Notes under the pieces: model-generated
Told to the model about the DNA's origin: nothing
Seen by the model: the letters and a program-made list of their open reading frames with translations, nothing else
The model's database searches: none
Made by a program: the position numbers and the translations under genes
In this document: piece by piece, positions 5,070-24,985 of the stretch
Numbering within the stretch: the first letter of the stretch is position 1
Layout: each line of letters starts with the position of its first letter
IMG/VR virus record: IMGVR_UViG_3300008255_000449
Span: 1-24,985 of that record
DNA length: 24,985 nucleotides
Origin: a virus
Lineage: Duplodnaviria > Caudoviricetes
Direction: 5' to 3' (one strand)

Positions 5070-7019
5070 TTAATACATCCTTCCTATAATTCTGTTTTTT
5101 TTACGCGCAGGGGCGGGAGGCTCCGGCGTATCAGGCTTTAATCCCTCGTGGTGCTGGTGTGGAATGATGCGTGTCCCCCACTCCTGCCAGTTGCTCGCGA
5201 GCATATTTAAGCCGGCGAAACTTAAAACCATCATGTCCAGCGCCTCGTTCCTGGCTCGGATTTTGCGCCAGGCTTTTTTCTCTACCCCTCGCTCCATTTT
5301 TTTGACGAGTTGCTCGGCGGCCAACTGTTTAAAAAATTCTTCCATGTAGCGATCCGGGAAGTGGATATATCCCGGCCCGGGCTCAGTTCGGTTCAGGCGG
5401 CCGTATATAATTTCTTTTGCGGGATCGACGCCGACGGTGAACAGCTCGACTTTTCTTTCATCAACACCCGTTCTCTTCGGGGCCGGGCTCGTTATGATTG
5501 GCCGGCCGTCTCCCGCGACGCCCTTGGTGGCAAAAATACGCTGGGCTGTTTTCCCTTTGCAAAAATCGTAGACGATCTGAGTTTTAAAACCGGAGTCGAT
5601 GCAGGTTGATGATATTCGCAGCTTGACGCCCGACTCATGCGCGAATGTGCGATCAAGATAATCCTGCAACTCCCGCCAGACGCCGGGCTGTTCCGGGTCT
5701 CCCCAGAAGGTCTGGTGATCAACCGACCAGCATTCTTCCCTTAGCCCCCAGCCGTTCACCAGAATCTCTATACGGTCATTCTGGATGTCGACGCCTGCGG
5801 TAAGAACGAATGCGCCCATCGGAACTTCGGCGGTATACTTCTCGCGGCGATGGTAAAGATCACTACTCTCTATCCCTGCGCCCTCTTCCTTCCAGGTTTC
5901 GCAGAGCCGGGTGTTTGTGAAAACTTTTAACTTTTGAACATCCTCCTTGGCGTCCAGAAACTCCTGGACAAACTGCGCCCAGGTGAACCATGGGCTGTAT
6001 AAGGTATTGAGCCTGAATCCGGCGACTCCGTTAAATTCAGCCTGGGCGATCCATTTTCCCCGGGCGACCATATCCGGCTTGTCTGATTCGAAAAGCAGCG
6101 TTCCGCATTCGATGCAGACCATGTGCGCCGTCTCTGGCCTGTGTACTTTTACTCCGTCGACAATCTCCTTATCCCAGCATACGTTTTTCCATTCCAGCTT
6201 TTGATACTGGTCGCAGTGGGGGCAAGGAACAAAGTATTCCCGCTGGTCGGATCTCTGATAGGATGGGTGGATCTTCGAGTCTGTGTCAGTGCCGGGTGAT
6301 GACGTTTTTATGATTTTTTTGTCCCAGAAATTGGTAGTCCGTTTTTCCGCCAGGTCGATGGGGTCGCCTTCTTTTTTGGAAGATTTTTCGTAACGATCAC
6401 ACTCATCTTCGAATAGGCGCTTGATGGGTTTTCCCGCAAGCGAGGCGGGAACGTTAGCGCTGGCAATCGCCAGATAGCCACCGGCAAAATTCTTTTTGAA
6501 TGTCCCGCTCTGTTTCTCATGGCCGCCACCACGACTCGGATATATTTTGCGCGACAGTACATCGGTGTCACGGATCATGGTGTCGATCCGGTCCTCTGAA
6601 AAATCCTTCGCGTTGTCCTTGTCGGGCTGCACCATCAACATCGGACTTGGATCAATATGAACGCTATAGGCGATGCAGTTAAGTAAAATCTCGCTTTTGC
6701 CGAGCTGCGATGCCCATTCCAGAACGATGGTATGAACGGTGGGATCGGTAAATGCATCCATCGGCTCACGCTGGTATTCGGCGCGGCTGGTGTCCCATTG
6801 CCCGTATTCAGAGCTTCCTTCCTGCGACAGCATCCTATATTTGTCCGCCCACTGCGAAACGGTGAGATCCGGCGGCGGGGCGAGAAGCGACAACACACTG
6901 CGGGATACTGCAGCCAGCGTGGCGGAGCATCTGAGTTTAAGGCGATTCGATTTCTGTTTCAGAGAGTTCTCGCAAGCCTTCGTCAATCGCTTTTTTGATG
7001 ATTTCTTTTGCCTGGGCAT
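5070..7019 (-). CDS. terL: Terminase large subunit, lambda GpA family (start codon uncertain)
   Basis: PPPDLTVSQWAD, ASQLGKSE (Walker A variant), LFEDECDRY (Walker B), YFVPCPHC, LTAGVDIQ and RNEALD motifs. Confidence 0.95.
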   Translation of the reverse strand: MPRQKKSSKKRLTKACENSLKQKSNRLKLRCSATLAAVSRSVLSLLAPPPDLTVSQWADKYRMLSQEGSSEYGQWDTSRAEYQREPMDAFTDPTVHTIVLEWASQLGKSEILLNCIAYSVHIDPSPMLMVQPDKDNAKDFSEDRIDTMIRDTDVLSRKIYPSRGGGHEKQSGTFKKNFAGGYLAIASANVPASLAGKPIKRLFEDECDRYEKSSKKEGDPIDLAEKRTTNFWDKKIIKTSSPGTDTDSKIHPSYQRSDQREYFVPCPHCDQYQKLEWKNVCWDKEIVDGVKVHRPETAHMVCIECGTLLFESDKPDMVARGKWIAQAEFNGVAGFRLNTLYSPWFTWAQFVQEFLDAKEDVQKLKVFTNTRLCETWKEEGAGIESSDLYHRREKYTAEVPMGAFVLTAGVDIQNDRIEILVNGWGLREECWSVDHQTFWGDPEQPGVWRELQDYLDRTFAHESGVKLRISSTCIDSGFKTQIVYDFCKGKTAQRIFATKGVAGDGRPIITSPAPKRTGVDERKVELFTVGVDPAKEIIYGRLNRTEPGPGYIHFPDRYMEEFFKQLAAEQLVKKMERGVEKKAWRKIRARNEALDMMVLSFAGLNMLASNWQEWGTRIIPHQHHEGLKPDTPEPPAPARKKNRIIGRMY

Positions 7020-10044: not shown

Positions 10045-10474
10045 CGGTCTTATTCTCCGTCTTATTCTCCGTCTTATTCTCCGTCTTATTCTCCGTCTTA
10101 TTAATTGGCCCTAATGGTTTTCCGCTTAGAAATTTTTCCTTCCTGCAATGCAGGCATTCCATACCACCATCTTGATCTATAGCGATCCAGCTTCCGCCTT
10201 TGATTTCAATAACGCCTGGTGTGTACTTCACCTGGGCTGCTGGGCCTTCCGGCAAAGATATCAAACCACCACACAATCCTGTTACAATCGCTTCGACTTT
10301 CGAATTTACGTGGAGCTTGCTAAAAATATTAGCCAGATGGGTTTTAGTGGTGAGCGGGGAAACACCATGGGCGGCAGCGATTTTACTTATATCGCCACCA
10401 TGATCTACCAAGCCCTGAAGGGTTTCTGTCTCTCTCTCCGTGAGTTCGACTCTCCGTGTTATTCGTGTTGACAT
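10037..10474 (-). CDS. LuxR/GerE-type HTH protein with C-terminal CxxC and NKTE repeats
   Basis: LTERETETLQGL...IAAAHGVSPLTTKTHLANIFSKLHVNSKVEAI is a LuxR HTH signature; GAGGAG RBS. Confidence 0.8.
   Translation of the reverse strand: MSTRITRRVELTERETETLQGLVDHGGDISKIAAAHGVSPLTTKTHLANIFSKLHVNSKVEAIVTGLCGGLISLPEGPAAQVKYTPGVIEIKGGSWIAIDQDGGMECLHCRKEKFLSGKPLGPINKTENKTENKTENKTENKTDD
10047..10102. repeat. 12-bp tandem repeat (GTCTTATTCTCC) x4 plus 8 bp
   Basis: Perfect copies, directly visible. Confidence 0.95.
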
Positions 10475-14528: not shown

Positions 14529-16829
14529 CTACCCTTCCTTTACTTTCACCTGGCCATTTTCTATATGCAGCACCGCGTCGGCCATTTGCTGCGCTGCGCC
14601 CTTATGGGAAACGTAAAACACCTGCTCGAAGCCGCCGATTTCGACCGCCTTCCTGAGCATTCGAATATACAGCTCGGTGTTGGATTCTGACAGCGGCGCG
14701 GAGCATTCGTCCCGCACCAGCGTTCTGGTATCGACACCGGAATGTCGCCGCTGGAAGATTGAGAGCCCGAGGGAGATCACTTCTTTTATCAGCGCCTGCT
14801 CTCCGCCACTCTTGTTTTCAACCGCCGTCTCCTCTCCGGTCTCGTTGTCAATAATGCTGAATTGGAGGCACTCGCGCAGCTCATCTTTTGTCGTCAGCTC
14901 GCGCTGGGTTTTGATCGTTATGGTAAACCTGCTACCGTAACATTCGCGCAGCAAGGCGTTTACCAGTTCTGATATTTCCGGCCCCGCCGCATCGATTTTG
15001 AGAGCCTTTGCGCCGGTCGGTCCGAGCCCTTCTCGCAGGATCTGCAGGAAGGAGAACCTGTTTCTTGTCCGCTCCAAATCGGCGAGGATTTCTTCCAGTT
15101 GATTCTTTTGCTCTTTGATCCCCTGCAGCTTCTGATCAGCTTTCGCGGCATTGGCGAGCGCCGCCTCGCCGCCCACCCGGATAGCCTCGATACTGACCTC
15201 CGCCTCCTGGACCTGGCGCGTCAGGGCGCTAATCGTATTTGTTATGTCGGCCGCTTGATCGAGTTTCTTTTGAGCTTCGGTCTTCCGGCTGGCATTCTCA
15301 AGAACACGCGCTGCGGCCTCCGTCACTGCCTGCCGGTAATCGTCGATCCGCTCCTGAATGCCTTCCAGGTAAGGAGCCTGCTTCACTAGCGGCTCCAGAT
15401 CGGCGAGCTGCGTTTTGAAAATTTGTAAACCGTTTTGCCGGTCTACGATCCGCGCCAGCAACTCATCCCCTTTGCCGCTGATTTGCGCCAGGTGTAGCGC
15501 CTCTTCGGCGGCTCGCTCCTGGGTGTCAAGGCCTTGCTTATTGGTTTCGTGGATGGACTTTGTTTCGAGTGCCTTTGCAAGCTCCGGCTCTAATCCCTCT
15601 ATGTCGCGCTCTGCTTGCTCTATCTGGGCTTTGAAATCCCGGGCGTTTGCGAGCAGCTCACATTTCGGCTGCAGATCCGTACCGACGCACGGGACGCGAT
15701 CGATAACATTTACTTGCGGCTGCAGGCGGGTGATCATCTCTGTTGCCCGGGTCTTCTGATTCTGCAGATCCCGGATGCGATTCTCGGTCTCGTGGATGGC
15801 CCGAAGATGCGAGGTCTGAACGTTCTTGATCCGATCGAGTTCATCCGTTGCGGTGCGGATCTTCTCCCGTTGCGCCGCGTCCTCGGCTGTCCGTTTTTCC
15901 TGCAATTGTGTTATCGCGCTTTCCAGCTTGGTGGCCTGCTGCTTTGCCGTTGCGGCCGCATCCAGGGCGAGCTGGATCTTATCCGCATCGGCCCTGAGTT
16001 TCTCGTTATTCTGTATGCGCTCAGTTTTTTCAGCGATGATCGCATTATCGTTTCTGATCGCCGTTTCAGCATCCGCGATCTGCTGGCGCAGGGGTTCGAG
16101 ATTCTGGGCGTTGGCCTGGGCGTTTGCAAGCTCCTGGCGCAGGCAGTTAAGATCCGATTGAACCTGGTCTGTTTTTGCCTTCGCGGACTCGGCCAGGCGT
16201 CGCCAGTGCTGCGCCTCCTCTTCTATCGTTTGAACGTCCTCGCATGATCCGCGCAGGAAAGACGCCTTCGCTTCCAGCGTAGCGATCTCGCGATCCGTCC
16301 GCTGGCAGCCTTCCACCACCAGCTCATAGGGCTGTTGGAATTTTGCCAGCCCTAACACTTCCGACAGCAGGCCGGAACGTTCCCGGTCCGACAAACTTAG
16401 CGGATTGCCTCGCCCGTTCTGGGCGTGATAAACGCTGGCCATAAAAGCTGTCTCGCTTAAGTTCAGGTGGCGGAGAAGCGACGCCTCGAACTCCGCCACC
16501 TTCCCTTCGGTTATGGGTTGGCCGTCTATGAAAAGATAGGGCTTTTGCTTGCGCCCCTCGGCGTCGATGAGTCGGCGGATCTGATATTCGCGCCCCGACA
16601 TCTCGAACGTCAGATCCAGGTAAGCATCCCTGCCCTGGAATGGGGTATACAGACTTCCGGGACGATTCGGCGCGACCCCATAGAGGGCGAGCGGAATGCA
16701 ATCGAGAAGCGTTGTTTTTCCGGCGCCATTTTCGCCAGTTACCGCCACAAGGGCCTTTTCGGGAAACTGAATTTCTTGTTCTTCTGGGAAGGGAATCAGC
16801 CCCTTAGTTTTCAAGCTTATAAAACGCAT
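14529..16829 (-). CDS. sbcC: SbcC/Rad50-like SMC ATPase
   Basis: Walker A GENGAGKTT, Q-loop YHAQ, long coiled coils with a central Cys pair, signature KSGGEQ, Walker B LVRDE, H-switch VSH. Confidence 0.92.
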   Translation of the reverse strand: MRFISLKTKGLIPFPEEQEIQFPEKALVAVTGENGAGKTTLLDCIPLALYGVAPNRPGSLYTPFQGRDAYLDLTFEMSGREYQIRRLIDAEGRKQKPYLFIDGQPITEGKVAEFEASLLRHLNLSETAFMASVYHAQNGRGNPLSLSDRERSGLLSEVLGLAKFQQPYELVVEGCQRTDREIATLEAKASFLRGSCEDVQTIEEEAQHWRRLAESAKAKTDQVQSDLNCLRQELANAQANAQNLEPLRQQIADAETAIRNDNAIIAEKTERIQNNEKLRADADKIQLALDAAATAKQQATKLESAITQLQEKRTAEDAAQREKIRTATDELDRIKNVQTSHLRAIHETENRIRDLQNQKTRATEMITRLQPQVNVIDRVPCVGTDLQPKCELLANARDFKAQIEQAERDIEGLEPELAKALETKSIHETNKQGLDTQERAAEEALHLAQISGKGDELLARIVDRQNGLQIFKTQLADLEPLVKQAPYLEGIQERIDDYRQAVTEAAARVLENASRKTEAQKKLDQAADITNTISALTRQVQEAEVSIEAIRVGGEAALANAAKADQKLQGIKEQKNQLEEILADLERTRNRFSFLQILREGLGPTGAKALKIDAAGPEISELVNALLRECYGSRFTITIKTQRELTTKDELRECLQFSIIDNETGEETAVENKSGGEQALIKEVISLGLSIFQRRHSGVDTRTLVRDECSAPLSESNTELYIRMLRKAVEIGGFEQVFYVSHKGAAQQMADAVLHIENGQVKVKEG

Positions 16830-17083: not shown

Positions 17084-18390
17084 ACCGCCACCTCCTGGAT
17101 AATTGGCGCGGCAGGTTTGGAATGGTCGTCAGCCCGACCCCCGCCGCATGCCTGAGCCCCGTTCCCGCCTTGGCCAACGTTATGAACGTCGGTACGTTCG
17201 GCGACGCGCTGATCCGGCTCGCTGCATTCCGTAATCTCTTTCAGTATCTGAAGGCATTCCTGTTTTTTTTCGCTAAGTCCCTTGGAGTCGAGCCAGACGC
17301 CGAGGCAATCCTCGACAGATTCGGCGGCCTTCATCTCCTCGCAGCGCACCGCCTGCGTGACTTCGACGATCTGCTCTATCTTGAGTTCTTTCGCACCTTC
17401 AAAATACTTTTTGATCGGATCCAGATCTACTTTTGGCAGATCCTCCTGGTTCACGCGATAGCGGAACCGGATGCGGGCTCCCCGCGTTGAGTCCGGCGTC
17501 AGGGAAGGTGCGACGTCATAAGCCATATCGGAATCATCATCATCAATGAATGTCCCGTCGCGCCATTCGGCCTGTACAATGAATGTCCCGTCGCGCCATT
17601 CGGCCTGTACAAGCAACATAGGGGTTGGGCTTACGCTAATAAATTCTTTCTCCCAGTAACCGCCCGCCGCTGTCCAGAGCATAACTCCTTTGTCGCCTTC
17701 TGACTCCCCGAAGGTCTGCCGGGTAAGAGAGCCGACGTACCAGACGCCCGGGGCCACCTCTTGATTTTTGTGGTAATGCCCGCAAATAACCGGGCAGCCA
17801 ATCGCAGCCAGGCGGTTGGCGTTCAGGTGGATTCCGTTGTTGCGGGGAATATGCCCGTTGTCCAGGGCAGCGCCGGAAACCGTGCCGTGAAACAGAACCA
17901 TACTCGGGCCATCGTAGCCCTGTACTTTTTGGAAAGTTGAATCCAGAATCGTCTCAAAGAGGCTGGTGCCGTCTTCCGCCAGGGCGTCCTGATTCGTATG
18001 CTTGAGCGCCAGGGCTCCGGCGTTAAAGTGCGGAATGCCCAGCACCTGCAACATATCGCCCTCGCGGGCAGTGATACGCTCCTCGTTCGGCGTTTCCCAG
18101 ACGTAAATTTCCCGGGCAAAATCGCGAAAGATTAACAGATCCCCCGACTCGTCATGATTCCCCCGGATGATCACCACCGGCCGCTTCCCGTCCCGGTTGA
18201 TCCGGTGCAGGAAATTCTTGAACACCAGCCGCTGTTCCGGCGTTGATTTCGCTTCGAAAACATCGCCCAGGACGAATACCATATCAACCTCGCGGTCGGT
18301 GGCGATATCAATCACTCGGCTTAAGGCCTCGGCCTCTTCAGTTTGATCACCCCCATGGAGATGGATATCTGCTACGGTTAAAACTCTCAT
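17080..18390 (-). CDS. sbcD: SbcD/Mre11-like metallophosphoesterase nuclease, 436 aa (start reassigned to MRVLTVAD)
   Basis: ADIH, LGDVFE, RGNHD, FHG, GHYH and YVGSL...FGE motifs; GAGGAG RBS. Confidence 0.92.
   Translation of the reverse strand: MRVLTVADIHLHGGDQTEEAEALSRVIDIATDREVDMVFVLGDVFEAKSTPEQRLVFKNFLHRINRDGKRPVVIIRGNHDESGDLLIFRDFAREIYVWETPNEERITAREGDMLQVLGIPHFNAGALALKHTNQDALAEDGTSLFETILDSTFQKVQGYDGPSMVLFHGTVSGAALDNGHIPRNNGIHLNANRLAAIGCPVICGHYHKNQEVAPGVWYVGSLTRQTFGESEGDKGVMLWTAAGGYWEKEFISVSPTPMLLVQAEWRDGTFIVQAEWRDGTFIDDDDSDMAYDVAPSLTPDSTRGARIRFRYRVNQEDLPKVDLDPIKKYFEGAKELKIEQIVEVTQAVRCEEMKAAESVEDCLGVWLDSKGLSEKKQECLQILKEITECSEPDQRVAERTDVHNVGQGGNGAQACGGGRADDHSKPAAPIIQEVAV
17544..17612. repeat. 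Perfect 33-bp in-frame tandem duplication in sbcD (VQAEWRDGTFI x2)
   Basis: CAATGAATGTCCCGTCGCGCCATTCGGCCTGTA x2 + CAA. Confidence 0.95.
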
Positions 18391-19702: not shown

Positions 19703-19879
19703 AGTGGTCTCCTTCTCTCTATCTATATCTCTATCTGTATCCTGCCACGTCCCGATCAGAATCAGCAGCACCGCCGCCAGTAAGAGCCATGGCCCGAGAT
19801 CCACGTCGCGGATCTGATTCGGCATGCCGGGACGCTCCTCGTATAGGGTATCCAGCGCGGTCTCAATATCTCTATCCAT
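19703..19879 (-). CDS. 59-codon membrane-anchor segment with its own RBS, fused in frame (no stop) to the annealase candidate
   Basis: AGGAGG-ccgacacc-ATG at 19879; TM-like LGPWLLLAAVLLILIG; same frame as ATG 19702. Confidence 0.5.
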
Positions 19880-20861: not shown

Positions 20862-21203
20862 ATGAATAAAACAAGCCCAATAGAACCAGCAAAGGCCATG
20901 GGCCGGACTGTCGGATGCCTGTCTGGAACTATAGGGGCAGGATGCATGCAAATTATCGGCGTTTTGCTTTGTCTGACGGGAATTGGCGCGATTGTTGGAA
21001 TTCCGTTAATTATAATGGGGTTTGCCGCTCCGGCCGTAACAGGCGCTATAACCGGGGAAATAATGATTAAAAGTAGCTGCCCCGCTTGCGGGCAGGCGAT
21101 AGAGGATATTAAGAAGCCGGGATATGACTGCCCCGCTTGCGGCGAGCGCCTGATTGCAAAAGAAAAAACCATGTACTTGGCCAGGGATATAATAGATGGT
21201 TGA
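20862..21203 (+). CDS. Membrane protein with double-CPACG zinc ribbon, in the repressor operon
   Basis: IIGVLLCLTGIGAIVGIPLIIMG hydrophobic hairpin; CPACG x2; AGGAGG RBS. Confidence 0.8.
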   Translation: MNKTSPIEPAKAMGRTVGCLSGTIGAGCMQIIGVLLCLTGIGAIVGIPLIIMGFAAPAVTGAITGEIMIKSSCPACGQAIEDIKKPGYDCPACGERLIAKEKTMYLARDIIDG

Positions 21204-22530
21204 ATTTTCGCACCTAAATCAAAAAACGCATGCCGCCGACACCCCTACACCGTCGGGAGTATGCCCGCGCTGTGGCTATACTTCCCAAGCTGAGGGTCGC
21301 GGGTTCGAATCCCGTCGCCCGCTAATACTTCAAAACGTAAACCAAGAAAAACAATGCGAAACCATGCGAACCAATGCGAAACCGGAATCTGAATGGATAG
21401 GGCAGCGAGAGGCAGAAACCCGCTTTGGCTGTAGCCGTGGCCGGTTCTATTGGCTGGTGAAATCCGGCGGTGAGCGGGTTCGCGCCGAGAATAAAGGGAA
21501 CAGAACGGTCCAAAAGATCCATATTTCCCTACTGGAGGCCGAGTCGCAGGTTATCGGCGATTACCGAAAGTTATATGATCAATGGGTGGCAGATCTTCAG
21601 TCTGGGGCGCTAATAGGGCGACCAGTAACCCCGCAGGGCCTTCAGACCCTTAAATACGGATTAGAAAAACTATGGCAGTATTCCGGCCAAAACCCGACGC
21701 TGGATCGGATTACAGCGGAAACTCTAAAGATAGCGCTGGGGGGAATACAAATCGACCACCAGCGGAGAAATTGCCATTTCTCCGTCCGCGATCAAATGTA
21801 TAAGAGCCTGGTGAGCTTCTCGAAATTTCTTATCAGGGAGGGCGTCCTGCCCGTCTCGATACTAGATCAGATCAGACTCTACAAACCGAAACGACATTAC
21901 CAGCCTAAAAAAATAGTTCTGACGGCGGCAGAGGTGGAGCGAATACTGGAAAAGAACTGGTCCATCCGGACTGGTGGCCGGTCCGACATCGATCAGTTCT
22001 TATCGGCCGCGATAGTTATGATGGGCGCATTTGCGGGGCTGCGCCGGGCCGAGATCATAGATCTGGGGTTGGCCGACGTAAACATGGCGGAAGGGTATAT
22101 GCAGGTTGCCGGGAAGGGAGGGAAGTGCCGCCCGGTTGGGCTACTGCCCGGACTGGCGGAGTTCCTGGTCGATTGGCTGGCCATCCGGCCGTCGTCGGAC
22201 TCGGGGCGACTGTTTGTACAAGAAAACGGTATTCCGCTTACTGCCAGCGTGATAAGGGGGAGGCTAGACCGCCTTAGTGCGGCGACTGGTATAGAATTCT
22301 CCCCCCATGCCCTCCGGCGAAGCTTCGCCACTATAATGGAGGGGCGCGGCATGCCGTGGTCATACGTCCAGAAGGCGCTGGGCCACGCGGATATAAAGAC
22401 GACGCAGGGCTACGTTATGGCCGACGAGAGGGCTTCTGTCGAATGGTTAAAGAGCCATGGCCGGGACACCGTGCCGGAAATTACGGACATCGACCGCCTG
22501 AAAGCCCTTGCCTCTATGCTCTCCCGGTAG
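21196..22530 (+). CDS. int: Tyrosine recombinase/integrase (start at 21196 or 21364)
   Basis: AGLRRAEI (R), GKGGK (K), HALRRSFAT (HxxR), LGHADIKTTQGY (H, Y): complete catalytic set; adjacent att core. Confidence 0.93.
   Translation: MVEFSHLNQKTHAADTPTPSGVCPRCGYTSQAEGRGFESRRPLILQNVNQEKQCETMRTNAKPESEWIGQREAETRFGCSRGRFYWLVKSGGERVRAENKGNRTVQKIHISLLEAESQVIGDYRKLYDQWVADLQSGALIGRPVTPQGLQTLKYGLEKLWQYSGQNPTLDRITAETLKIALGGIQIDHQRRNCHFSVRDQMYKSLVSFSKFLIREGVLPVSILDQIRLYKPKRHYQPKKIVLTAAEVERILEKNWSIRTGGRSDIDQFLSAAIVMMGAFAGLRRAEIIDLGLADVNMAEGYMQVAGKGGKCRPVGLLPGLAEFLVDWLAIRPSSDSGRLFVQENGIPLTASVIRGRLDRLSAATGIEFSPHALRRSFATIMEGRGMPWSYVQKALGHADIKTTQGYVMADERASVEWLKSHGRDTVPEITDIDRLKALASMLSR
21281..21323 (+). mobile_element. 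att core (probably attP): 3' half of tRNA-Gly(CCC) from the anticodon loop to the discriminator
   Basis: c-TTCCCAA-GCTGA-GGGTC-GCGGG-TTCGAAT-CCCGT-CGCCCGC-T gives anticodon loop, 3' anticodon stem, variable loop, T-arm, acceptor 3' strand and U discriminator; no D-arm or 5' acceptor strand upstream. Confidence 0.9.
21351..21380 (+). repeat. Three tandem 10-bp repeats (nnnATGCGAA), candidate integrase arm-type sites
   Basis: ACAATGCGAA, ACCATGCGAA, CCAATGCGAA; inverted copy TTCGCA at 21207-21212 on the other side of the core. Confidence 0.65.
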
Positions 22531-22552: not shown

Positions 22553-22581
22553 TTGACTTCATCGTTCGATGGCGTTATATT
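22553..22581 (+). promoter_or_regulatory. Near-consensus sigma70 promoter with a palindrome in the spacer
   Basis: TTGACT-17 bp-TATATT; CATCG-tt-CGATG at 22560-22571. Confidence 0.75.
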
Positions 22582-22633
22582 ATAGAGGTTAACCAAAACC
22601 GACGGCCGCCAGGCCGCGAGAAGGGACACCAAA

Positions 22634-23245
22634 ATGAAAAAATTTACTTGCAACTGCAAAGCCCCCGCCACCAACAGCTACGGCAATATTGAAAAACAAG
22701 AAATTCCGAAGGGCTGGGCCGCCTTCGGTGACTGCCGGGGCAAAATCGCCCAGGAAGCCAAAGCCCAGGGCAGGCTGGTTATCGTAAGAACCGGCTGGCA
22801 CTACAGATCGCGGCGCTGGGGATACGCGCCGATTCTGGAAAACTACGCCTGTCCCCATGTTTTCAGCAGAATCAAAAAAGCCGAGGCCGAGGCCGAGGCT
22901 AAAAAAAACAGCCCTGAGGCCATTAAGCGCCGTGAAGCCGCCCTGAAGGCGGCGGCCACCAGAAAGAAAAATCAGGAAATCAAGGCGGCGGCGGAGCGCG
23001 AAGCGAACCAGCCCGCTGCCATCAGCGCCGATTCAACGGCGGTCGAGGCGCTGAAGTCCGCCTGCCAGGAGCTTGCAAACGCCCAGGCCAAACAGCGGGA
23101 TTTCAGCCCGATCTGGATGGGCTATTTCCTGGCGCTGAAAACCCAGATACGCGCCCATTTGCCGGAGATGGTGGGCGACGGCATGAATCGCTACGCGCAA
23201 CAGGTGGCCCGGGCACGGTATTATGGCGAGAAAGTCGAGGTCTGA
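22634..23245 (+). CDS. Hypothetical protein, 203 aa (anti-defence candidate)
   Basis: First ORF after the promoter; AAGGGA RBS; N-terminal domain, A/K/E-rich helical linker, C-terminal helical domain. Confidence 0.7.
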   Translation: MKKFTCNCKAPATNSYGNIEKQEIPKGWAAFGDCRGKIAQEAKAQGRLVIVRTGWHYRSRRWGYAPILENYACPHVFSRIKKAEAEAEAKKNSPEAIKRREAALKAAATRKKNQEIKAAAEREANQPAAISADSTAVEALKSACQELANAQAKQRDFSPIWMGYFLALKTQIRAHLPEMVGDGMNRYAQQVARARYYGEKVEV

Positions 23246-23324
23246 CCCCTTCCCCCTCCCTGCCTCTGCAACGAGGCGGGATAGGCGGAAGCCTTACAGT
23301 AGTAACAGAATGGAGGAAGCTAAA

Positions 23325-24149
23325 ATGGTGACCAGATTTGAGATTTTGCAAGAGGAAAACCCCGATCAGGCCCATGTGGTTGAAAAAATACTAGGGTGTG
23401 AAAAAGGGAAACATAACACCTACTGGGATGCCGAGGTGCCCACCTGGCAGGGATACCGGAATAAGGACCGCGATACCCGCTTCAGGCAAGCAAAATGGAA
23501 CCCGGTGGTGGCTGCCGTCCTGGCACTTCTCCCTGATATCGACCTGCCGAACGGGGTGGTTTCTGAAGAAACTGGAGAGTGCGACACGTATAAGGTTTTC
23601 GACGGGTATTCTATCGCATCACGGAAAAAAGGCGAGATGCTGCGCTTCCCGATGGGGGCGGGGAGTGACCTGGTTCTAACTGAATCACAGTTATGGGACG
23701 TGGAATATCTGGACGAGGAGACGAAGCGGCCAGCCGGTCATGAAACCGGGCTGTGGCGAAAAAAATGGATCACTGTCTCCGCGTTAGCGGCCATGGTCCG
23801 GGTGGCTGCGATAGATTACTACCGTCGCTTTCCTGGCGATTATGGCGTGCTGGAAAAATTAGAAAACCACGTCATCCCCGAAGATCTCAGGGAAATCAAG
23901 AGCCTGTTCGATATTCCTGAGATAGAAAAAATATACGCGGAACAGTACAGGCTGTCGAAGTCTTTCGCAGAAGCTAGATCCCTCCCGAAGTTAACCGGCA
24001 CCGCGCGGCAAAAACAATGGGCTGAGACCATCAGAGCGGTATACTTCGCGGAATGTGAGTTACAGGGAGAGGCGCCCCCTAAAGAGGTTCAAAATCAAAA
24101 AAGCGCAAGATACTGGATCAATTCAATAAAAAGTGGGCCTGCCAGATGA
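23325..24149 (+). CDS. Hypothetical protein, 274 aa (start reassigned to MVTRFEIL; anti-defence candidate)
   Basis: GGAGG RBS; C-terminal LPKLTGTARQKQWAETIR...SARYWI resembles the LPxLxGSEKQxxWAxxIR motif of uncharacterised phage proteins. Confidence 0.75.
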   Translation: MVTRFEILQEENPDQAHVVEKILGCEKGKHNTYWDAEVPTWQGYRNKDRDTRFRQAKWNPVVAAVLALLPDIDLPNGVVSEETGECDTYKVFDGYSIASRKKGEMLRFPMGAGSDLVLTESQLWDVEYLDEETKRPAGHETGLWRKKWITVSALAAMVRVAAIDYYRRFPGDYGVLEKLENHVIPEDLREIKSLFDIPEIEKIYAEQYRLSKSFAEARSLPKLTGTARQKQWAETIRAVYFAECELQGEAPPKEVQNQKSARYWINSIKSGPAR

Positions 24150-24186
24150 AAAAGCCCTACGAAAGTAATAGAAATGGAGGAAAATC

Positions 24187-24669
24187 ATGAACCATGTACG
24201 TTTCCGCCTGACGCGGGAGGCCCTGACCCTCAGCCAGGGAGAACTGGCCGAGGCGCTGGGCGTCAGTAAGCGCGTGCTGGCCCGCTGGGAAGGCGGGCAG
24301 GAATCGGTGCCGGAAGCCCGGCTGGAGCAGCTGGAAAAACTGGCCGAAGAATTTCATGGCGCGATCAACCGGCGCGCTGACACCCTGCTTGCCTTGATCG
24401 AAGAGCGTAAAATGGACTACGTTATTATGCCCGTCTATATGAGCGATGCGGAATACCGCGCTGTTGATTGGCCGGGCGGGGACATCTGGCCCACGGCCAA
24501 AATGATGCGGCAGATGATTTACCGCATTGTGGCGGCGGTCGAGGCAAAAACAGCGGCGGAAATTCTGCTGATTCCCTTTGATCTGGAAAATTATCAGGAC
24601 TGGCTGGCCGAATCCGGCGAGGCCGACAACACCCAGAACCGAAGCGTCTGGGCCGCAATGCAGGCATAA
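24187..24669 (+). CDS. XRE-HTH regulator, Aca2/YdiL (DUF1870)-like, with C-terminal extension
   Basis: FRLTREALTLSQGELAEALGVSKRVLARWEGGQESVP, a long helix, then MPVYMSDAEY; GGAGG RBS. Confidence 0.65.
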   Translation: MNHVRFRLTREALTLSQGELAEALGVSKRVLARWEGGQESVPEARLEQLEKLAEEFHGAINRRADTLLALIEERKMDYVIMPVYMSDAEYRAVDWPGGDIWPTAKMMRQMIYRIVAAVEAKTAAEILLIPFDLENYQDWLAESGEADNTQNRSVWAAMQA

Positions 24670-24682
24670 TGGAGACCCTATA

Positions 24683-24985
24683 ATGAAAAAGCCAGACTCT
24701 CCGCGCCAGTGGGCGCTGATAAAAGAAGAAAAATTCTACTACTCGAAAAAACCTTGCAAGCGCGGGCACTGGGCCCCACGCTACACGAGTAACTATGTCT
24801 GTACGGAGTGCCACGTAATTGACGCCAGAGCCTGGACTCGGGCCAACCCGGAAAAGCATCTGACTTTCACCAAAAAGTGGAGGGCGGCGAATCGGGAAAA
24901 ATACCGGGAGAATGACCGCATCTGGAAACAGGCGTACAGAGAAGCGAAACGAATGATAGAAGCGGAAAACGGAGGAAATGAAAAA
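24683..24985 (+). CDS. Zn-binding phage protein, running off the window edge (module often N-terminal in HNH-type proteins)
   Basis: Manual translation MKKPDSPRQWALIKEEKFYYSKKPCKRGHWAPRYTSNYVCTECH...; GGAG RBS; a further GGAGG-ATG begins at 24978. Confidence 0.7.
   Translation, partial: MKKPDSPRQWALIKEEKFYYSKKPCKRGHWAPRYTSNYVCTECHVIDARAWTRANPEKHLTFTKKWRAANREKYRENDRIWKQAYREAKRMIEAENGGNEK

Follow-up and report, generated by a model that had tools for sequence, protein, structure and literature searches.

Does the group of genes that follows the integrase in IMG/VR virus record IMGVR_UViG_3300008255_000449 (Duplodnaviria; Caudoviricetes) help its phage to evade host defences? The stretch analysed here, referred to as the window, comprises positions 1 to 24,985 of that record. 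An initial annotation, made from the letters alone, had proposed that positions 22,553 to 24,669 form an anti-CRISPR (Acr) or anti-defence operon in which two open reading frames (ORF1 and ORF2) precede an XRE-type helix-turn-helix (HTH) regulator resembling the anti-CRISPR-associated (Aca) protein Aca2. We found that ORF2 carries a domain homologous to parts of two Acrs, AcrIF23 and AcrIE7, and that the HTH protein is a distant relative of Aca2. As an Acr-related domain and a distant Aca2 relative stand in one operon, the operon is likely to aid the evasion of host defences, and we consider it probably to be an autoregulated counter-defence operon lying beside a temperate-phage integrase. The gene order, the promoter-like site, the family of the HTH protein and the homology of the ORF2 domain are taken as established, and every functional step is one that we infer.

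The C-terminal domain of ORF2

Both upstream proteins had been described as orphans, which holds for ORF1 and fails for ORF2, as the C-terminal domain of the latter can be recognised. Among 1.84 billion representatives ORF2 had six matches besides itself, four of them with a common C-terminal motif; the other two (P0009 and P0012), being repeat proteins, were set aside as due to chance. A first profile, made from the ORF2 C-terminus and those four proteins, matched AcrIF23 at an expect value (E) of 4e-14 and AcrIE7 weakly. In a single scan of viral contigs the domain was found at 46 loci, of which 35 remained once near-duplicates were removed, and a 35-member profile was made from the ORF2 domain and 34 viral-contig loci, leaving out the AcrIF23 cluster. 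Against 177,635 distinct sequences of the PDB this profile had five matches at E up to 1, all of which are AcrIF23 (E 5e-13) or AcrIE7 (four entries, E 4e-5 to 7e-5). The homologous segments are residues 62-116 of AcrIF23 and residues 2-51 of AcrIE7. A direct phmmer comparison gave E 0.023 for the homology, and the AcrIE7 link is seen by profile only. None of the 35 members matches a Pfam family. A profile from which ORF2 and AcrIF23 were both withheld still gave the two 45-47 bits and did not match any of the window's 356 other reading frames. Circularity affects ORF2's own profile score and the first-motif K/R, because the loci were chosen by their likeness to ORF2; the Acr matches of the profile are free of it, as is the conservation of an arginine in the second motif, kept in 23 of 34 members and not in ORF2.

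The likeness to AcrIF23 (PDB 7FIA) extends over the whole domain of about 55 residues, in which the motif LTGTARQKxWAExIR is nearly identical and an A-x-aromatic-WI motif follows. ORF2 differs from it in its length of 274 residues, in the C-terminal position of the domain and in having no detectable match to the two C-terminal helices of AcrIF23 or to residues 17-28, through which AcrIF23 binds Cas2/3 outside the common domain (PMC9270243). Residues 74-85 of ORF2 were considered as a look-alike of this loop and rejected. In AcrIE7 (PDB 9KJB, 9LA6, 9L2Q and 9N3X) it is the N-terminal half that matches the domain profile, whereas the second half has no counterpart in ORF2. K6 and R49 of AcrIE7 (106-residue chain) align with two conserved positions of the domain, a K/R and an R, and their mutation was found to abolish binding of single-stranded DNA (ssDNA; PMC12002350). 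Arg228 of ORF2 occupies the K6 position. Binding of ssDNA by ORF2 is a serious possibility, somewhat short of an even one. The 200 residues before the domain gave no credible match in any search, and the structure model of ORF2 (predicted local distance difference test, pLDDT, 41) is unusable for fold claims.

AcrIE7 has been called a unique fold (PMC12002350) and AcrIF23 a novel fold (PMC9270243). We did not find a link between their domains in the literature, of which subscription papers lay largely outside the coverage, so that it may nevertheless have been published. The accessible text of the reviews PMC13131331 and PMC13728456 makes no such link, nor does that of the Results of PMC13551039 connect the domain with AcrIE7.

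The neighbours of the domain family point to a different explanation as well. A superfamily-2 helicase gene follows the domain gene in 14 of the 35 non-redundant loci, in four also a PAPS reductase/DUF3440 gene and in three a methylase gene. Small HTH or ribbon-helix-helix (RHH) neighbours were found in seven of the 35 loci and an LPD29 gene in one, and the acrIF23-acrIF24 operon itself accounts for another. The counts were made on 115 neighbours, which a crude ORF caller had predicted and which were cut at 450 residues; two loci had no downstream gene. The domain was also observed on its own, tandemly repeated and as part of many fusions. It may then be a general phage module for docking nucleic acids or proteins, borrowed by two Acrs, with ORF2 serving DNA metabolism or modification in an ordinary autoregulated early cassette without an anti-CRISPR gene; the position of the functional AcrIF23 loop outside the domain and a 28-nucleotide in-frame identity between ORF1 and the sbcC-like gene of the same phage would fit this explanation too. 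No helicase or modification gene was found in the present operon by family scans, however, and the same helicase, methylase and PAPS-reductase genes, together with distant acrIF23 homologues, occur in Aca-regulated operons (PMC13551039), where such genes and LPD29 genes are predicted to act in counter-defence. The helicase context can itself be read as counter-defence because that paper places such genes in Aca-regulated operons. Those operons, in which distant acrIF23 homologues accompany helicase or restriction-modification genes and aca or RHH (Aca14) genes, share with the window the domain family and the class of Aca-regulated accessory operon; they differ in the helicase, methylase and nuclease genes, which are absent here. 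We regard the general-module explanation as unlikely, though not negligible. The proposal that the upstream proteins are Acrs or other counter-defence proteins is strengthened for ORF2 by a domain common to AcrIF23 and AcrIE7 and weakened by its being common in helicase-linked phage genes also.

Further arrangements of the domain were observed. Three proteins (P0010, P0011 and P0013) contain two or three tandem copies of it, and in a module that recurs in L015, L022, L031, L049 and their relatives a protein of about 380-460 residues with the domain near its N-terminus is followed by an SNF2 helicase gene and a PAPS reductase/DUF3440 gene.

The regulator and its candidate operator

The HTH protein was found to belong to the Aca2/YdiL/SO3848 structural family in its long SO3848/DUF4447 form. 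Its best full-length match is SO3848 (PDB 2OX6), of the same length class, with residues 2-159 aligned to 8-165 at E 1e-6, and it scores 29.8 bits against DUF4447 (cut-off 27.2). The motifs on which the comparison with Aca2 had been based are present as RWEGG..SVP and PVYMSDAEY. Only the structures of YdiL and SO3848 are reported to match Aca2 in both of its domains, and SO3848 has two further C-terminal helices (PMC8434428).

A test profile, built from three long-form relatives (L005, L006 and L009) and one actinophage protein with the window's HTH protein excluded, gave 20.8 bits on its residues 56-160, compared with at most 6.3 among 1000 shuffles and at most 1.5 among four ordinary XRE proteins. 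A profile including the HTH protein matches the Aca2 structures at E 9e-22 to 6e-16. By these profile comparisons the C-terminal part is of the Aca2/SO3848 type, independently of the HTH domain. The initial resemblance to Aca2/YdiL therefore stands at the level of the structural family (SO3848 and the C-terminal part) and fails for the Pfam Aca2_YdiL family and the canonical operator. A Foldseek search had 2OX6 as its top row at E 0.08, and a wide search placed it at rank 13 with Z 4.5; both used a single-sequence model of pLDDT 53, too weak for fold claims.

Arg29 of the HTH protein corresponds to Arg30 of Aca2, a residue required for repression (PMC6765145). The three long-form relatives are Pasteurellaceae prophage proteins that match it at 22-26% along the whole of its length, have the same C-terminal extension and pass the Aca2_YdiL cut-off. 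A palindrome in the promoter spacer was observed in all three, with the canonical TTCG-N6-CGAA core in one. Upstream of the L009 gene are an RHH gene and a Cas5f (Csy2) homologue, an arrangement described as anti-defence (PMC13551039). With full-length relatives, the arginine kept, and a differing recognition helix and operator, the protein most likely works like Aca2 on another operator while standing outside the Pfam Aca2 family.

The loci of these relatives contain further small genes. In L009:149-3260 (same phage as L001, Pasteurella phage Pm86) the order is an RHH gene, a 106-residue acidic gene, the Cas5f (Csy2) homologue, a 76-residue gene and a long-form aca2, and the 76-residue gene, which lies behind a palindrome-bearing promoter, is an Acr candidate. 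A gene of 93 residues within L005:5642-6441 and one of 72 residues within L006:5659-6447 are positioned directly 5' of long-form aca2, each behind a promoter with a spacer palindrome, and are Acr candidates also. Five of the nine loci in the search for relatives were dropped as HTH-only XRE matches, four of them being reused as controls, and L004, an actinophage homologue, lacks the C-terminal extension. An HTH profile run over 401 genomes of one class gave four new loci, and the three of these that were inspected contain generic XRE proteins only.

The promoter that had been predicted upstream of ORF1, TTGACT-17-TATATT, is present and agrees with the sigma-70 consensus at 10 of 12 positions. 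Three sites of this quality exist in the window, and only this one precedes a correctly oriented gene. The inverted repeat noted in its spacer, CATCG-tt-CGATG, was also confirmed (p about 0.04 against shuffled spacers); it can be extended to 22554-22577 with 8 of 11 pairs and is the sole copy in the window when up to one mismatch is allowed. The leader hairpin, likewise predicted, is found just 5' of the ribosome-binding site and has no match in Rfam. A further hairpin, lying in the ORF1-ORF2 gap, did not reach significance (z -1.41). Taken together, the spacer palindrome and leader hairpin are suggestive only. We think it likely that the HTH protein represses its own operon.

Chance has to be considered for both elements. 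Shuffling of the spacer yields a 5-bp palindrome in 4.3% of cases, 13% of all 29-mers in the window contain one, and a second copy is absent; SO3848 and YdiL are known outside acr operons (PMC8434428). The HTH protein could accordingly be an SO3848-like regulator of other targets, with the palindrome and the hairpin due to chance and the six genes a loose collection of cassettes. The spacer palindrome in all three long-form relatives, the leader common to ORF2 and the HTH gene, and the tight spacing of genes three to six speak against this, and we hold it to be very improbable.

Gene order and phage setting

The ORFs of 203 and 274 residues and the XRE-HTH gene lie where they had been reported (Table 1), and each of the three has a Shine-Dalgarno-like site. 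The placement of the aca gene last did not survive: as ORF4 starts 13 nucleotides past the HTH stop and ORF5 and ORF6 follow in a second assembly of the same phage (L064), the unit consists of six co-directional genes in which the HTH gene is third. L064 is identical to the window at 5124 of 5127 bases over the operon part. After ORF6 it has a strong hairpin, which we read as a convergent terminator serving the opposite strand.

Table 1. Positions of the operon features and of the adjoining integrase and attachment-like site
Feature	Position	Strand	Remarks
attP-like site, 3' half of a tRNA gene	21281..21323	+	Directly 5' of the integrase; Gly-CCC from anticodon loop
Tyrosine integrase	21364..22530	+	PF00589, E 6e-27; phrog_1, E 3e-30; probable start
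Promoter-like site, sigma-70 type	22553..22581	+	10/12 consensus matches
Palindrome, candidate operator	22560..22571		In the promoter spacer
Second palindrome, GGTTAACC	22587..22594		At the expected transcription start; read from the sequence
5'-leader hairpin	22600..22618	+	Core CGGCC-gcca-GGCCG, 22603-22616
ORF1, 203 residues	22634..23245	+	Basic, isoelectric point 9.7; orphan
ORF2 leader	23289..23318	+	Repeated as HTH-gene leader, 24152-24182 (25/31 columns)
ORF2, 274 residues	23325..24149	+	Acidic orphan N-terminal 200 residues, basic C-terminal domain
ORF2 C-terminal domain, residues ~217-270	23973..24146	+	From profile searches of solved structures
XRE-HTH regulator, 160 residues	24187..24669	+	Aca2/YdiL/SO3848 structural family, long form
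ORF4, 101 residues	24683..24985	+	Stop 3 nucleotides past the window; Cys/His motif of phrog_1081, E 4e-6
ORF5, 53 or 81 residues	After ORF4 in L064		Basic; no family
ORF6, 71 residues	After ORF5 in L064		Acidic; no family

The 31-nucleotide leader shared by ORF2 and the HTH gene is the best of 528 leader pairs (score 36, against 30 for the runner-up), and its score was reached in none of 5000 shuffles. This repetition suggests a cassette-like assembly of the operon. No named family was found for ORF4, ORF5 or ORF6, and ORF6 has no match in the PDB. The 71 residues of ORF6 are a size usual for Acrs.

ORF1 consists of a Cys-containing N-terminal part, an Ala/Lys/Glu-rich middle and a C-terminal part, and no family was found for it. 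A variant (P0004, 198 residues) has 96% identity and an in-frame deletion of 15 nucleotides; no other relatives were found in the word search, the Atlas, phages, the PDB or, for residues 1-89, plasmids, and in metagenome contigs it occurs only in the two assemblies of this phage. The Atlas model (predicted template modelling score, pTM, 0.26) is unusable for fold claims. Within ORF1, 28 bases (23064-23091, plus strand) are identical to 16111-16138 (minus strand) of the sbcC-like gene; both encode QELANAQA in the same reading frame, and the identity is present in L064 also. A further 17 nucleotides are shared between the sbcC-like gene (14780-14796) and ORF4 (24712-24728). Both identities suggest recombination or gene conversion inside the genome.

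The window is part of a temperate phage with lambda-type terminase, portal, protease and head genes. Its minus strand has RuvC and SbcCD-like genes, and the plus strand contains, in order, a repressor, a small membrane/zinc protein and the tyrosine integrase, followed by the operon, whose promoter starts 23 nucleotides past the integrase stop. The integrase probably starts at 21364 because the ORF from 21196 (21196-22530) reads through the attP-like site. In metagenome runs X1-X4, contigs with tRNA genes align exactly to 21281/21285-21323, their loose ends being tRNA 5' halves before the site and CCA behind it, and no complete tRNA was found in the window. The intact attP points to a free, non-integrated form of the phage. 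All four runs are aquifer or groundwater metagenomes; X1 may be the source of the DNA, and near-identical pieces are present in X2-X4. Among the pieces listed for X1-X4 no exact copy of the att core was found. The best matches of the terminase are of 40-45%. L064 lacks about 135 nucleotides corresponding to 19724-19858, inside a gene of 499 residues. Short exact tandem repeats were observed at 1-64 (period 18), 10047-10102 (period 12) and 17544-17612 (period 33, inside the sbcD-like gene).

The position of the operon between the integrase and the convergent terminator, with its own promoter, would suit a moron expressed in the lysogen from the prophage end, such as a toxin-antitoxin, superinfection-exclusion or prophage-defence unit with the HTH protein as antitoxin or repressor. 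The HTH domain alone does match antitoxin families, all below cut-off, and a mycobacteriophage DUF4447 gene is listed as toxic on expression (PMC7474061). Against this, no toxin, nuclease or defence domain was found in any of the six ORFs by the family scans, which did not include PADLOC, and the C-terminal part of the HTH protein is of the Aca2/SO3848 and not of the antitoxin type. We judge a moron of this kind to be improbable.

Counter-defence reading and proposed mechanism

The operon can be set beside known acr-aca2 operons such as acrIF8-aca2 of phage ZF40. Both have a strong sigma-70 promoter, a promoter palindrome, a leader hairpin and cargo genes before an Aca2-fold HTH gene in which the arginine is kept. 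The regulator here is different in its 160 residues with an SO3848-type C-terminal extension and in its recognition helix, and the cargo includes no full-length known Acr, the match being at the domain level only. Aca2 leaders have two conserved RNA hairpins; one hairpin (folding z -2.38) was observed here.

Several observations weigh against a counter-defence operon. The HTH protein scores 14 bits against PF08965 (Aca2_YdiL), below the gathering cut-off of 23.8, and after Arg29 its recognition helix reads LAR where Aca2 has WQY. The palindrome has CATCG in place of the canonical TTCG-N6/N8-CGAA core, exists in a single copy and is marginal with respect to chance, as is the leader hairpin (3.9% of shuffled leaders; z reached in 4 of 200 shuffles). 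SO3848 itself is chromosomal and of unknown function, and neither it nor YdiL lies in a prophage (PMC8434428), whereas the present gene is in a phage operon beside an Acr-related domain. Three more genes follow the regulator, unlike in ZF40, though genes downstream of aca2 within operons have been reported as well (PMC13551039). In ORF2, the AcrIE7 R49 position is taken by Ile268 (with Lys269 adjoining), and the AcrIF23 segment 17-28 has no counterpart, the similarity there being no better than in 402 of 1000 shuffles; in the published assay no DNA binding was seen for AcrIF23 on its own (PMC9270243). To these are added the orphan state of ORF1, the helicase that follows the domain gene in many loci, and the finding of no Aca2 or Acr Pfam family among the 115 neighbours, a scan that overlooks some Acrs since AcrIF24 itself had no Pfam match. 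Related phages were not found in viral contigs by means of the HTH protein, attP, integrase or ORF6.

In the counter-defence reading, which we hold to be the most probable, the strong promoter would fire early, on phage entry, and the cargo would blunt the host defence, after which an Aca2-like dimer would bind the spacer palindrome, and perhaps also the leader hairpin, and so switch off transcription of the operon. The basic C-terminal domain of ORF2 may bind exposed ssDNA, for instance the displaced strand of an R-loop, and shield it from a host nuclease, with targeting possibly provided by the acidic N-terminal 200 residues, a role that the N-terminal loop has in AcrIF23. Further cargo could be encoded by ORF1 and ORF6. 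A true anti-CRISPR somewhere in the operon is conceivable but doubtful; that ORF2 itself is one seems unlikely, and a Cas3-type target for it is similarly unlikely.

We suggest, tentatively and as something we do not expect to hold in full, that the domain of AcrIE7, AcrIF23 and ORF2 is a widespread phage module for ssDNA shielding, and that ORF2 is a new inhibitor joining it to a targeting domain, under the new operator specificity of an SO3848-type branch of Aca2. If this were true, it would bring together two Acrs whose folds were published as unique, explain how AcrIF23 can promote DNA binding to Cas2/3 and yet prevent cleavage, and point to modular anti-nuclease proteins as a large family.

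The locus offers candidate proteins for counter-defence from a groundwater phage that is uncultured and without close relatives in the searched collections, and places an SO3848/DUF4447-type protein, from a family of unknown function, in an acr-aca-like setting. The most valuable result is the unnamed domain common to AcrIE7 and AcrIF23. Should AcrIE7 bind ssDNA through this unit, the same mechanism could be tested in AcrIF23 and in dozens of phage proteins, and the domain would serve as a marker for finding anti-defence genes.

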